DNA of 42,237 nt, taken from IMG/VR virus record IMGVR_UViG_2880361019_000002, positions 1 to 42,237 of that record. One strand, given 5' to 3'. The stretch's first letter is position 1. Each line of letters begins with the position of its first letter. This DNA is from a virus. Lineage: Duplodnaviria; Heunggongvirae; Uroviricota; Caudoviricetes. A program made the position numbers and the translations under genes. Positions 14,699 to 20,005 of the stretch are shown here, piece by piece. The notes under the pieces were generated by a model, which was not told the DNA's origin, did no database searches, and saw nothing but the letters and a program-made list of their open reading frames with translations.

Positions 14699-15157
14699 TT
14701 AGTTCAGGCACTGAGTGCGGATATAGTCCTGTGCCCCTTCCAGCTGCTTCTGCATTGTCATCAACCGTTCTCTGAGGATGAAATAATCCCGTTCAGCGGT
14801 GTCTGCCAGTCGGGGGCCGGTTGCATTATCCACGCCGGAGGTGCCGGTGGCTTCACGCACGGTACCGGAGCAGGTGGCGTTGATCCGCAGGCGCTTACGA
14901 CCAGCGGCAACATCAGCACGCAGAGTTTCATTTTCAGCTCTCGCATCGGCTAATTCCCTCGAGTATTTTGCATCGAGCGCAGCAACATCGCGCTGGCGCA
15001 CCTGCATATCAGTAATGGTTGCGTTTGCCAGCTCCAGCTCTCTGGCTTTTTTATCGCGCTGCGCTTTGTAGGTGATGGCGTTATCACGGTAATGGTCTGT
15101 TGCCAGCCACAGCGCACCACAGACCACCAGCAGAATAACGGTAAACGCGGAAAGCAT
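14699..15157 (-). CDS. Rz: i-spanin Rz
   Basis: Start taken at MLSAFTVILLVVCGALW...; strong match to lambda Rz (NHYRDNAITYKAQRDK...DAKY...ADTAERDYF). Confidence 0.85.
   Translation of the reverse strand: MLSAFTVILLVVCGALWLATDHYRDNAITYKAQRDKKARELELANATITDMQVRQRDVAALDAKYSRELADARAENETLRADVAAGRKRLRINATCSGTVREATGTSGVDNATGPRLADTAERDYFILRERLMTMQKQLEGAQDYIRTQCLN
14761..14946 (-). CDS. Rz1: o-spanin Rz1 (embedded in Rz, alternate frame)
   Basis: 61-aa lipoprotein ORF MRELKMKLCVLMLPLVVSACG... with Pro-rich body, matching lambda Rz1. Confidence 0.85.
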   Translation of the reverse strand: MRELKMKLCVLMLPLVVSACGSTPPAPVPCVKPPAPPAWIMQPAPDWQTPLNGIISSSENG

Positions 15158-15394
15158 TCGGTTTATGCTCACCCCACCAACCCTGCCGAAGTCAACGCCA
15201 TCCAGGTTATGGAAAGAAAAAGAGCAACCAGCATTAGTGAAAATGAAATACCGACGATTACACAAAGGCCCTTCGCCAGCATTATGAGTTTGTCTGACAT
15301 CTTTACCTCTTAATAGCAGTAATTAACCGGGCAACCACCCATAAAAACGGAATCAGCCAGACCAGCAAAAATTTCCAGTCCATTTTTATCATCT

Positions 15395-16090
15395 TCATGC
15401 TGCGGTAGCTCTCCATGCAGCAAGCAGACCAGCAATCCACTGAACACCTTTTGGGGTGAATTTAACCTGCGTAAAAGCATGACCATTGCCCGCCTCGCCC
15501 GTTTTCACGCTAAACCGCCCCGCATCCAGGTGATGCGAGTAAGGCGTCATTTTTCCAGCGAGGCGATACATTATTCCGTTCTCCAACAAAAACAGCCGGA
15601 AATCGGTTTCTTTGATACCGAGTAACTTAGCAACTTCCCGGAATCCCATCAGACCAGATGCTTCAACATAGTTATCAACAAATTCAGCCTTCGGCGCTGC
15701 TATTGCCAGTTGATTTTCCAGCACTGCTTTCTGTTCAGCCAGTTTTGCCGCAAATCGCAACGCCTCAGGTAAAGTCCGGGGGATCTGAATACCATGCATC
15801 GCTTTGAGTCTTGCCAGCACAGAACGACGAACGGCCTTTGACTCCCTCATGCCAACGAGCATCATCTGGTCAAAATCCAGATCATAGTATGCCGTTCTTG
15901 TCTGGTTATTGTTTAACCGGGATTTTTTTCCGGTTCCATCAAGCTCTAGCTCATCCTCAATTTTTGCAAGAAACTTACGCGGTTCATGAGGGACTTCTCC
16001 GGCTTCTGCCCGGGCTGGATTAATAATGTTATTCAGAAAATCCAGACTACTCATGGATATTTCATGATCGACAGAAATCATCTCTTTCAT
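15395..16090 (-). CDS. Phage antirepressor (KilAC-domain family)
   Basis: 231-aa ORF; composition and position resemble the antirepressor-like protein found between R and Rz in some lambdoid/Stx phages. Confidence 0.5.
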   Translation of the reverse strand: MKEMISVDHEISMSSLDFLNNIINPARAEAGEVPHEPRKFLAKIEDELELDGTGKKSRLNNNQTRTAYYDLDFDQMMLVGMRESKAVRRSVLARLKAMHGIQIPRTLPEALRFAAKLAEQKAVLENQLAIAAPKAEFVDNYVEASGLMGFREVAKLLGIKETDFRLFLLENGIMYRLAGKMTPYSHHLDAGRFSVKTGEAGNGHAFTQVKFTPKGVQWIAGLLAAWRATAA

Positions 16091-16363: not shown

Positions 16364-16897
16364 TTATCTGTCGATTCCCCAGCACGCCAGAGCGCTCTCC
16401 TGGTCACGACGGGATACCTGACCATAACAGTTATTTGAGCGAATACGGCAGTCTCTGCCACAGTCCTTAATCCACCAGCGAATCGCTTCGCAGGCACCTT
16501 TTCGATCTCCTGCATTAATTCGTTTATAAAACGTCGACGGGAAACACTTACCTGGGCCAATGTTGTAAGGACAGAATGACGCAATACCCGCTTTCTGGGG
16601 TTCAGTCAGTGGCACTTTGATGTTTTTCGCCACCCATGCCAGCGCCTTATCACGTTCAATGGCGTTAACCTGGTCGCATTTTTCCTTCGACAACTTCATG
16701 CCCGGGAGGACAGGCTTACCATCCACCCGGGTGGCTCCACGGCAGATGGTCCAGATACCCGCACCATCACGGTATGCCGTGGTGTGGTTACCTTCCTTTT
16801 CATCCAGAAACTGGTCGAGAATGTCAGGCGCAGGCGCACCTGCGGCAATCAGCGCCAGAACGGCAGCCGACAGGCCGTATCTGATTTTTGCGTTCAT
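16364..16897 (-). CDS. R: SAR (signal-arrest-release) endolysin, T4-lysozyme-like
   Basis: N-terminal weakly hydrophobic SAR segment GLSAAVLALIAAGAP followed by E...D...T catalytic spacing; phage-21-type. Confidence 0.8.
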   Translation of the reverse strand: MNAKIRYGLSAAVLALIAAGAPAPDILDQFLDEKEGNHTTAYRDGAGIWTICRGATRVDGKPVLPGMKLSKEKCDQVNAIERDKALAWVAKNIKVPLTEPQKAGIASFCPYNIGPGKCFPSTFYKRINAGDRKGACEAIRWWIKDCGRDCRIRSNNCYGQVSRRDQESALACWGIDR

Positions 16898-16947
16898 GGA
16901 TATTTATCAGGGTTTATCGATTTCAAATCCCTGGATATGTTAAGTCT

Positions 16948-17292
16948 TCAGGCCAGCGGTGGAGTCTTCAGAGAACCAGTAATTATTCCCGGTAGTTTTC
17001 CTCTGTAGGTTATCAACACATCCTGCGCCTCTAAAATTACGGGGCGCTTTTCCGGCAACGGACCATCCCCTTCACATAACCCGGCAGCAACATCCATGAA
17101 AAACTGCTTCGCCTGCTTTTTCGCCTCAGCTTCGTAAAACTCCAGCGTGGCACCTTCAGTACGGTCAAGACTAATCGCCACATCTGGCAACAACAGTGAC
17201 GGATACCCACCAATTTCCAGTGCCACAGTAACAGTAATCTTATCCGGGTAATTATTTATCCCTTTAACACCCAGTTCGTATTTTTTCTTCAT
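16948..17292 (-). CDS. Hypothetical protein inserted between pinholin and endolysin
   Basis: 114-aa ORF filling the S-R gap on the same strand; no family recognised. Confidence 0.45.
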   Translation of the reverse strand: MKKKYELGVKGINNYPDKITVTVALEIGGYPSLLLPDVAISLDRTEGATLEFYEAEAKKQAKQFFMDVAAGLCEGDGPLPEKRPVILEAQDVLITYRGKLPGIITGSLKTPPLA

Positions 17293-17296
17293 CGCT

Positions 17297-17512
17297 TTAC
17301 TCCCCCCGCGCCGCCTTACGACGGTCCTCTCTGATTTTGAAATACAGGTTAGTCAGATACGTCAGCAGGCCAAACAGCAGACTCCCCAGCACACCGATTG
17401 CCACCCACTGGGACGGAGAGACTTTGTCCAGCAGCTGCAGTAACCAGTATCCCGTCCCCACCGCTGACGTGGTGTATGACACACCTGTTGTGATTTTTTC
17501 CATCTGGTACAT
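17297..17512 (-). CDS. S: Pinholin (phage-21 S-like), dual-start motif
   Basis: [10 protein letters not shown]... with two hydrophobic segments and C-terminal [19 protein letters not shown]; upstream in-frame extension in the ORF track judged non-coding. Confidence 0.8.
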
Positions 17513-17661: not shown

Positions 17662-19515
17662 TTATGATGATGCCGGTGCATTTATCTCCAGCACCAGACT
17701 TTCTATCTCAACGCCATACGCTGCATTTTTTGTAACATCCGTCAGCGTCAGCGCATTCAACCCCAGTGTCAGACTGTCTTTTATGACCTGGAATGCCGGG
17801 CCAGCCACTCCATTCAGTTTCGGAGTAACCGTGGCACTGCCGGCGGTGAACACCAGCTCCAGCGTCTGCCAGTCGTTACCGTAATCGCCGAACTCCCCCA
17901 GCTTCGTGTTTCCGGCTTTCCTGTGATGCATCAGATTCACTCTGCCGTCAGTGGTCTGAGTGAAGTACGACATCAGGAACGGATTACCGGTACCCGTCAT
18001 CGCCACACCATCAGGAACGGGAGCATCCGTATACAGATAAATCCCCAGCCCGAACTGATTGTTGGTCAGTGCGCCTGACAGGCGGAACTTACAGGTCAGT
18101 CTGCCGCCCTGTGTCAGCAGGGTAATTGCGTCATCCACCGGATGCGTCAGGGACCAGGTTTTATTGCTCTGCTTGGCAATCTTAAATACACCATCTGACA
18201 ACTGAATTCCGCCATCCTTAATGCTCCAGCCCTGCGCAGCAGCCTCTCCGGCTGCCGGCAGCAGGGAGATTGTGCGAACGGACGTATCTGCAGACGGACC
18301 CGATGGCGTGTTGCCGCCGGGCGAGGGTTTGATTTCCGGTGCCTTACCACTGATGAAGGCTGAGGTGCGCCCGGCTGCGTTCAGAATAGCGGTTGCCAGA
18401 CGATCCGGAATAATGCTCCTGCGCGCCCATGAACTGAAATGTGTCGGGCGGTTTGATGATACCTGGTTTCCATTCGTTCTCGATGCCGCACCGTAATATC
18501 CTGATGCCGGAATATCCGGATCTTCTGCCGGCGCGTTAGTGGCGGTATTGACGCCGTTACCGTCTGTCATGAAGGGCACAAAATAAACGCCCTCACTCTC
18601 CCTGTTTTTATACCCGCCGTACACGGTGTCGTACTGGGTAGCGTATGTATTTTTCCAGTAATACGTCGTGTCACCACAAATCCACGGCACATCTGCAGCA
18701 CTGCCACCATGGCACTGCGCGTTAAACACGGAGAGGTCAGCACGAAACTGTGTCAGCATGGCTGTAAACAGCGCAGGTTGCTGTGCGTGGGTGGCGGCGC
18801 TCATGTCAAACTCACCCTGCATCCAGCAGACGGCCAGCAGAACGTTTTTGGGATTTTTCTGCAATGCCGCTTTTGTGCGGGAAATCAGATCCTGATATAA
18901 CGGCTTGCCCACCCCCCAGCGTGCCGAATCCTGACTGGCCCCCGTGGACTCGCTGAATGTCCCCTCCGCGCCCTGGGTAAATGCCGAACCACCACGACAG
19001 CATGGTACCAGCAGGATCCCCGCGTTATTCGGGATATACGGGAGCAGTTTTTTGGCAATATGTAAACCCTGGCCGACACAGCCGTACTGCCCTTTGCTCA
19101 GGTCAGCCCTCGGATGATTCAGCGTACTCATATCCTGCACATCATGCAGACAGTGGTCAGCCGGAATAATATCGTTATATCTGCAGGCAGCCCCGCCCGG
19201 CGTCACTGTACTGCGGCGCGCCAGCTGTTTAATGCGCGGATCCGGAGCATCGTATGAATCCGGCAGCGGAAGCCCTTCACAGTAAGCCATGGCATTGGAC
19301 TGCCCGGCCAGTACGATGACGTAGTACCAATCCGGCTCAGATGAAGGGCCGACCTGTGGCTCTCCTTCAATAGCCACCGCCTGCATCAGTGTGTACGGCG
19401 TAATGGCAACCGGTCCTCCGTATGGCTGCCAGCCCTCTTTCAGTTTGTGTGTCAGCTTTTCCGCAAGGTCTGACGGCGACGCCGCCCTGACAACATCATA
19501 ATGTTTAATCGACAT
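17662..19515 (-). CDS. nanS-p: Prophage-encoded sialate O-acetylesterase (NanS-p-like)
   Basis: 617-aa ORF; DUF1737-like N-terminus then SGNH esterase signature ([14 protein letters not shown]); position between tRNA region and lysis genes as in Stx phages. Confidence 0.75.
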
Positions 19516-19837: not shown

Positions 19838-20005
19838 TCAAGCATTATGCAGGCTGTTTCTTTTTATCACCGGCCACAGCAATACCACAATGCCGCAGAC
19901 CAGCACCCCATCCGCCAGCACCGACATGATTCTGCTGGTGAAATCCACCATCACCACCAGAAACAGCAGGAGTGCAGCCACAGCCAGGCGCAGTTTTACC
20001 GTCAC
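19838..20005 (-). CDS. Small predicted membrane protein (about 55 aa), translationally coupled to upstream gene
   Basis: GTG start overlapping the TGA of the 20002-20463 ORF (GTGA), GGAGAA RBS; two hydrophobic segments (LRLAVAALLLFLVV, VLADGVLVCGIVVLLWPVI); not in ORF track (short). Confidence 0.35.
   Translation of the reverse strand: MTVKLRLAVAALLLFLVVMVDFTSRIMSVLADGVLVCGIVVLLWPVIKRNSLHNA

Follow-up and report, generated by a model that had tools for sequence, protein, structure and literature searches.

ydfR, a gene between the pinholin and SAR-type lysozyme genes of a lambdoid prophage, and its possible link to RNase E

Results

Gene order in the lysis cassette

The window is the whole stretch of DNA that was analysed, that is, positions 1 to 42,237 (42,237 nt) of IMG/VR virus record IMGVR_UViG_2880361019_000002. 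It is a lambdoid prophage in which the late order is Q, tRNA, TerB, DUF3927, NanS-p-like esterase, S, YdfR, R, Ant, Rz and terminase. The genes downstream of Q include a tRNA (anticodon CAU), a TerB-family gene, DUF3927, and a NanS-p-like sialate esterase (DUF1737+SASA+DUF6645), with intervals at 20002-20463, 17662-19515 and 20679-20754, all on the minus strand. The TerB/DUF3927 region occupies the position that stx has in Stx phages, and the window prophage is a non-toxin relative of Stx prophages.

The S gene, at 17297..17512 on the minus strand, encodes an S21-type class II holin (pinholin) of 71 codons (PF04971, E 4e-32; phrog_9876, holin) that is 79% identical to both EssD and EssQ of E. 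coli K-12. The mechanical ORF extends to 17617; the gene proper begins MYQM, with the Met1/Met4 dual start that is typical of S21. Next on the same strand is a single ORF of 114 aa at 16948..17292, with an ATG start and with the stop codon counted in the interval. Its translation start context (17293..17307, minus strand), as read from the sequence, consists of the TAA stop of S at 17297-17299, a 4-nt gap, and a GGGGAG Shine-Dalgarno sequence within the last holin codons. A DNA alignment showed that the junction of S with this ORF is conserved across all variants aligned, and the distance from the holin stop to the ATG was 4 nt in every Escherichia locus sampled (ten loci, two other alleles), with a 177-aa lysozyme next.

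A 50-nt spacer (16898..16947, minus strand) separates the stop of the 114-aa ORF from the start of R. In a DNA alignment with the 176-aa, 116-aa and K-12 forms, the 3' part of the spacer matched the conserved R leader. A regulatory RNA structure in the spacer was considered and rejected, as no significant structure was found there (z = +0.85). R itself (16364..16897, minus strand; PF00959; phrog_7, endolysin) encodes a 177-aa rrrQ-type lysozyme, 90% identical to K-12 RrrQ and 31% to RrrD, with a SAR-like N-terminus that is Gly/Ala-rich and weakly hydrophobic. No recognizable Shine-Dalgarno sequence was seen upstream of the R start at 16897 (16898-16915, minus strand; …CCCUGAUAAAUAUCC AUG). With no evident Shine-Dalgarno sequence for R, and with the start of R and the stop of ydfR overlapping (ATGA) in the K-12 Qin prophage, the lysozyme may rely for its translation on the ORF before it.

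Between R and Rz lies an Ant/KilAC antirepressor-like gene at 15395..16090 on the minus strand (PF03374, E 2.7e-28; phrog_63, anti-repressor Ant), for which the RefSeq annotation in FORC_042 is 'phage antirepressor protein'; this Ant was found downstream of R in only two of 71 IMG/VR loci with an rrrQ-type lysozyme. It is followed by a strongly hydrophobic 43-codon ORF just upstream of Rz (15169-15300, minus strand), a 'hypothetical protein' in FORC_042. Rz is at 14699..15157 on the minus strand (PF03245, E 6e-50; phrog_13); its raw ORF extends to 15265, and the start given here is that annotated in the near-identical FORC_042 prophage. Embedded in Rz is Rz1 (14761..14946, minus strand), an ORF with a lipobox-like LVVSAC. 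An earlier note on this DNA had described a same-strand 114-aa gene between an S21-type pinholin gene and a SAR-type lysozyme gene, with an antirepressor-like gene between R and Rz. The gene and this gene order were confirmed, the coordinates agree, and the strand is the minus strand. The note had also expected the gene to be expressed together with the lysis functions. No promoter or terminator excess was found within the cassette of the window and no such site flanks the 114-aa ORF, and both this ORF and the Ant-like gene must be co-transcribed with the lysis genes.

The 114-aa ORF is ydfR

The earlier note had taken the 114-aa product to be of an unrecognised family, which it is not. The protein matches Pfam PF07041 (DUF1327) with E 3.5e-45 and 152.6 bits, the Pfam cut-off (gathering threshold) being 25 bits, and residues 1-112 align to profile positions 1-92/93. 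It also matches phrog_406 in PHROGs (E 7e-64); NCBIfam held no model for it. A gene of E. coli O145 RM9872 annotated 'YdfR family protein' (WP_000731192.1) is 100% identical at the DNA level. The homology search that the note had proposed thus placed the protein in DUF1327 and phrog_406, and gave no PDB sequence match. An intact frame with at least 99% identity was found in 432 genome records, and likewise in viable phages. Judging from the full-length DUF1327 match, the phrog_406 match, and a dN/dS of 0.21-0.26 over codons 1-74, the ORF is a genuine gene and a chance ORF is excluded. It is ydfR, a member of a catalogued and very common family, so that no new entity is added here.

A 58-codon ORF is open in another frame within ydfR (17037-17213, minus strand), and a similar ORF of 52-59 codons is open in both diverged ydfR alleles; it probably stays open as a side effect of the conserved main frame. 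In the RM9872 prophage with the identical ydfR (locus L001, 4104-5950), the lysozyme gene is split by an IS3-family element, and the lysis cassette of that copy is thereby inactivated.

Modular structure and selection

The protein consists of two modules. Module A, the conserved DUF1327 N-domain, covers codons 1-74 (17071..17292, minus strand), as delimited by AlphaFold2 prediction, alignment and dN/dS. It is predicted to form three antiparallel strands and one long helix (pLDDT 70-85, aa 5-73), aligns without gaps to residues 1-74 of K-12 YdfR (46% identity), and also aligns without gaps to stand-alone homologues of 72-76 aa, in which the LEFYE motif is kept; Tyr53-Glu54 is invariant in 16 diverse DUF1327 sequences. 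Module A is acidic, with a pI of 5.07 (4.5-5.2 for the N-domain across the family), and no transmembrane segment or signal peptide was found in the 114-aa protein (maximum Kyte-Doolittle 19-residue mean, 1.18). These properties show the 114-aa product to be a soluble, acidic protein of predicted cytoplasmic location. Against diverged alleles the dN/dS of module A was 0.21-0.26 at a saturated dS (about 1.7), and by this estimate module A is under purifying selection.

Module B covers codons 75-114 (GDGPLPEKRPVILEAQDVLITYRGKLPGIITGSLKTPPLA; 16951..17070, minus strand), residues 75-112 being PEKRPVILEAQDVLITYRGKLPGIITGSLKTPP, and is present in only a subset of the family. AlphaFold2 gave no confident fold for it (pLDDT <50), and it may be disordered. 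Its dN/dS is about 1, a value from only about 11 differences, with no sign of purifying selection. The divergence drops sharply between modules A and B, which indicates that the gene is a recombinant mosaic.

Long E. coli relatives carry in addition module C, a coiled coil, and module D, of about 120 aa, giving proteins of 268-333 aa. Module D is predicted to contain three strands plus helices (pLDDT 60-83). The window form ends exactly where the long relatives go on, modules C and D being absent, and DNA alignment with the 176-aa form showed a deficit of about 460 nt directly after module B, the absent stretch holding module C plus a convergent 86-codon ORF. At least four different tails (PPLA, PPESQP, PPKW and PPE) follow module B among the short forms, suggesting that modules C and D were lost repeatedly while A+B was retained. 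Among E. coli loci, relatives with the A-B-C-D modular structure range from 103 to 333 aa (S|R gaps of L047, L082, L039, L052, L040 and L050); some S|R loci carry C+D only, without the DUF1327 core, and unrelated opposite-strand ORFs of 86-233 aa share the S|R slot in several loci. Module D had no Pfam, PDB or fold match; Pfam likewise returned nothing for module C or the partner ORFs, and neither the family profile nor module D gave a match in PDB sequence searches. The possibility that module D is a diverged duplicate of module A, both having three strands followed by helices, was rejected by hhalign (probability 0.2%).

Comparison with known relatives

The comparison with the cassettes of related phages that the earlier note had proposed was carried out, and ydfR proved to be conserved in the S-R position in Qin, H-19B, mEp460, BP-4795 and Stx2 phage 86. 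In the Qin prophage of E. coli K-12 the order is essQ-ydfR-rrrQ-rzpQ, and YdfR (b1555, P76160) belongs to the same Pfam family, with an S21-type holin before it and a 177-aa lysozyme after it. K-12 YdfR differs after residue 74, where an unrelated 29-residue tail takes the place of module B, and K-12 ydfR overlaps rrrQ by 4 nt where the window has the 50-nt spacer. In the DLP12 prophage essD directly abuts rrrD, so that K-12 shows both arrangements. The Stx1 phage H-19B (AF034975.3; L194, 2501-2842) carries a 98% identical 114-aa ORF in the same S-ORF-R order; in its GenBank record the 400-nt S-R gap is unannotated despite this ORF. Annotated copies are found in BP-4795, Stx2 phage 86 and mEp460, and dozens of records of Stx1a and Stx2c phages also contain the gene. 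The H-19B and Stx-phage copies show no substantive difference from that of the window, being the same gene in inducible toxin phages.

Association with lysozyme type

According to the earlier note, S and R are normally adjacent in cassettes of the phage 21 type. This statement held for one of the two lysozyme types. The 165-aa R21/rrrD-type lysozyme is found in cassettes with adjacent S and R, e.g. in K-12 DLP12, and S abutted R, with ydfR absent, in all 80 of the IMG/VR loci closest to this type. For the rrrQ type, 71 IMG/VR loci were usable; the N-domain lay in the S|R gap in 59, another insert (C+D) did so in ten, and S and R were adjacent in two. Both sets are made up of close relatives of the two queries and are not independent, so that the association of ydfR with lysozyme type may be plain linkage. 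S-ydfR-R is the usual arrangement with the 177-aa rrrQ-type lysozyme, as seen in Qin, in 59 of the 71 loci, and in H-19B, BP-4795, Stx2 phage 86 and mEp460.

The S|R gap took more than 20 lengths between 379 and 1310 nt. The full range of S|R gaps was 4 to 1310 nt, and the presence of DUF1327 varied between otherwise collinear phages. At one ydfR-bearing locus, L027, the holin protein is identical to EssD of DLP12, which has no ydfR. The occurrence of one holin allele with and without ydfR, together with the locus counts, indicates that ydfR follows the lysozyme type rather than the holin, and that the slot is hypervariable.

Distribution of the family

By megablast, 3006 of the 5426 complete E. 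coli genomes contain related DNA, in up to eight copies each; the S21-type holin gene was present in 2450 genomes of the complete E. coli set. The matching phage records were all from Escherichia phages (101/101). A scan of one genome per species with a narrow alignment found close relatives in Escherichia coli, E. albertii, E. ruysiae and Shigella, and nowhere else apart from two MAG bins. These two Firmicutes MAGs, one assigned to Veillonella parvula (L008) and the other to Bacillota (L010), contain a ydfR locus of the K-12 type, and the two loci are most likely mis-binned E. coli prophage contigs. The DUF1327 family is narrow, with 89 clusters at E <1e-3 in an exhaustive HMM search of 1.84 billion representative proteins, and it contains many frameshifted and fused variants. 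Its more distant members are proteins of 72-99 aa from Yersinia and metagenomes; viral contig scans with two distant family members as queries gave no match.

DUF1327 in a mobile cassette outside lysis genes

In Yersinia prophages and related metagenomic contigs, stand-alone N-domain genes lie in lambda-like tail-tip clusters, in the slots gpM|gpL, gpL|gpK and gpI|gpJ. These Yersinia-type genes are on the late strand and are followed by a small opposite-strand ORF. One 755-bp segment of Yersinia enterocolitica was found at 97% identity in two different tail slots (L013 and L014, 4971-5725). The segment starts with the Shine-Dalgarno sequence of the gene and ends, immediately ahead of the following tail gene, in a GC hairpin and T-run, and the cassette holds the 72-aa DUF1327 gene, a convergent 98/99-aa ORF, and the hairpin with its T-run. 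The S|R slot of E. coli phage Evi (L195, 2501-3040) likewise contains a 72-aa DUF1327 gene and a convergent 98-aa ORF, the latter 61% identical (E 3e-45) to the Yersinia partner ORF. The Evi/Yersinia pair is an exception, as the convergent partner ORFs elsewhere belong to at least six unrelated families; the window copy of ydfR has no partner ORF. The two tail slots and the S|R slot of Evi show that the DUF1327 core travels in a moron-like cassette among several late-operon positions.

Lambdoid morons include bor and lom of lambda. The DUF1327 gene is moron-like in that its presence or absence varies between collinear late operons, and in that relatives lie in a short mobile cassette ending in a hairpin and T-run. 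It is unlike a moron with its own promoter and terminator in that none was found for the gene here, which reads with the late operon. The location of the Yersinia homologues among tail genes points to a late-operon accessory gene and argues against a lysis component; a mobile DUF1327 cassette is hard to reconcile with a dedicated lysis role.

Discussion

A possible role at RNase E

The sole experimental information found on YdfR comes from one study, and concerns the K-12 protein (PMC13232886, RNA Biol 2026). In that work a two-hybrid screen yielded residues 1-72 of K-12 YdfR, which correspond to module A, on three occasions, and these residues were found to bind the catalytic half of RNase E. 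Full-length Strep-YdfR co-purified Rne(1-598) together with DNase-resistant nucleic acid, although the authors could not rule out a contaminant as the RNA binder. YdfR overexpression changed few transcripts and caused no growth defect, and ydfR had almost no reads in the uninduced K-12 lysogen (PMC13232886). A second paper, given as a source on ydfR, reports an envelope screen (PMC3879167), but ydfR does not appear in its main text. A Keio ydfR::kan insertion, lying upstream of rrrQ, could cause envelope leakiness by a polar effect, a candidate explanation.

The RNase E data lead us to prefer, tentatively and at somewhat less than an even chance, a model in which YdfR is a late-expressed cytoplasmic accessory protein outside the lysis machinery, whose N-domain docks on RNase E and adjusts RNA decay. 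In this model the Q-dependent late promoter would drive ydfR of the window together with S, R and Rz, and translation would begin from the Shine-Dalgarno sequence within the end of S. The N-domain, by homology to K-12 YdfR, would dock on host RNase E at its N-terminal, catalytic half, perhaps with RNA, and the docked domain would adjust RNA decay late in the lytic cycle. The model builds on the identity of the gene, the selection on module A, the solubility of the product, the late-operon placement and the mobility described above; its RNase E step would be carried over from a paralogue. Several points weigh against it: that paralogue is only 46% identical in the N-domain, its overexpression altered few transcripts, and the RNA binder in its preparation may have been a contaminant; an acidic domain is unlikely as a direct RNA binder; module B lacks any sign of purifying selection; and the tight tie to one lysozyme type and the translational coupling to the holin are also predicted by a role in lysis.

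Phages encode several RNase E modulators, among them T4 Srd, T7 gp0.7 and phiKZ Dip. If the K-12 result transfers, YdfR would be a further small phage protein that touches RNase E in lytic growth, at the N-terminal half as with Srd; the window protein shows no homology or fold similarity to Srd, gp0.7 or Dip.

Alternative explanations

The earlier note had suggested that the gene might modulate lysis timing, and this suggestion gained no support. In such a scheme the acidic cytoplasmic protein would bind the basic C-terminal tail of the S21 pinholin, or would control the rrrQ-type SAR lysozyme. The 4-nt distance from the holin stop and the Shine-Dalgarno sequence within the holin gene, both constant over the Escherichia loci sampled, are what a lysis regulator would lead one to expect, as are the co-occurrence with the 177-aa lysozyme (59/71, against 0/80 for the R21 type) and the possible need of R for translation of an upstream ORF. 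The protein, however, has no transmembrane segment or signal sequence that would target it to the membrane or periplasm, and Pfam, PHROGs, NCBIfam and PDB sequence searches showed no similarity to any antiholin or releasin. The known families for comparison are the antiholins S21-71, T4 RI, P1 LydB and P2 LysA and the releasin Mu gp25, and Pfam, PHROGs and NCBIfam returned only families of unknown function. Further, the distant homologues sit in tail clusters, the N-domain is absent from 12 of the 71 rrrQ-type cassettes, the same holin allele works without ydfR in DLP12-type cassettes, the two locus sets are close relatives whose association may be plain linkage, and overexpression of the K-12 paralogue is without growth defect (PMC13232886). 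A lysis regulator is thus quite improbable. The other suggestion of the note, that the gene is cargo, fits better than lysis timing. As cargo other than an RNase E factor, YdfR might serve in anti-defence or self-immunity, or might be the counterpart of the variable convergent genes found with it elsewhere and, for example, neutralize a prophage-expressed partner at lytic onset. The mobile-cassette behaviour, with DUF1327 followed by a convergent small ORF and a hairpin, is in keeping with this, and so are the unrelated opposite-strand ORFs after the DUF1327 gene in many loci and the small size and acidity of the protein, features of many phage inhibitor proteins. This explanation is nevertheless unlikely: the window copy has no partner ORF, partners from at least six unrelated families make a specific pairwise relationship unlikely, PADLOC found no match for YdfR, its long form or five partner ORFs, the gene has no promoter of its own, and there are essentially no transcripts in the K-12 lysogen (PMC13232886).

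The 114-aa form might instead be a truncated leftover of a 268-333-aa gene, decaying in a slot that is neutral and supplies ribosomes to R. Such decay would account for the roughly 460 nt that the 176-aa form has, and the 114-aa form lacks, directly after module B, in a family in which full forms of 296-333 aa are common and frameshifted and fused variants are many, and for the dN/dS of about 1 and lack of a confident fold in module B. The N-domain, on the other hand, is under purifying selection, 432 genome records and viable phages keep the frame intact at 99% identity or more, and both Yersinia and phage Evi have N-domain genes that stand alone, all of which make a decaying remnant the least probable of the explanations considered here. 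The earlier note had allowed that the gene might turn out to be an already characterised, conserved component of lysis cassettes or a non-expressed remnant; the family is indeed catalogued and common, and the remnant reading is contradicted by the selection on module A and the intact frame. In sum, the interpretation offered in the note was partly supported.

Significance

Extending the RNase E-docking model to the family, one would see the DUF1327 N-domain as a temperate-phage RNase E modulator carried on a small mobile cassette, in the S-R slot in Escherichia and among tail genes in Yersinia, that shapes late mRNA stability, burst size or toxin yield; this is possible, though we consider it rather doubtful. 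In a variant of this reading, the strict company kept with the rrrQ-type SAR lysozyme would reflect a new cytoplasmic control of that lysis system. Useful by-products of the work are a module map of the family, the linkage to one lysozyme type, and the occurrence of the core domain as a mobile cassette outside lysis cassettes. Few uncharacterised genes are as common as ydfR in the lambdoid and Shiga-toxin prophages of E. coli, and it is co-transcribed with the genes for phage and toxin release. Should its N-domain act on RNase E, ydfR would encode the first factor of this kind described for temperate lambdoid phages, and could affect late expression and toxin output.
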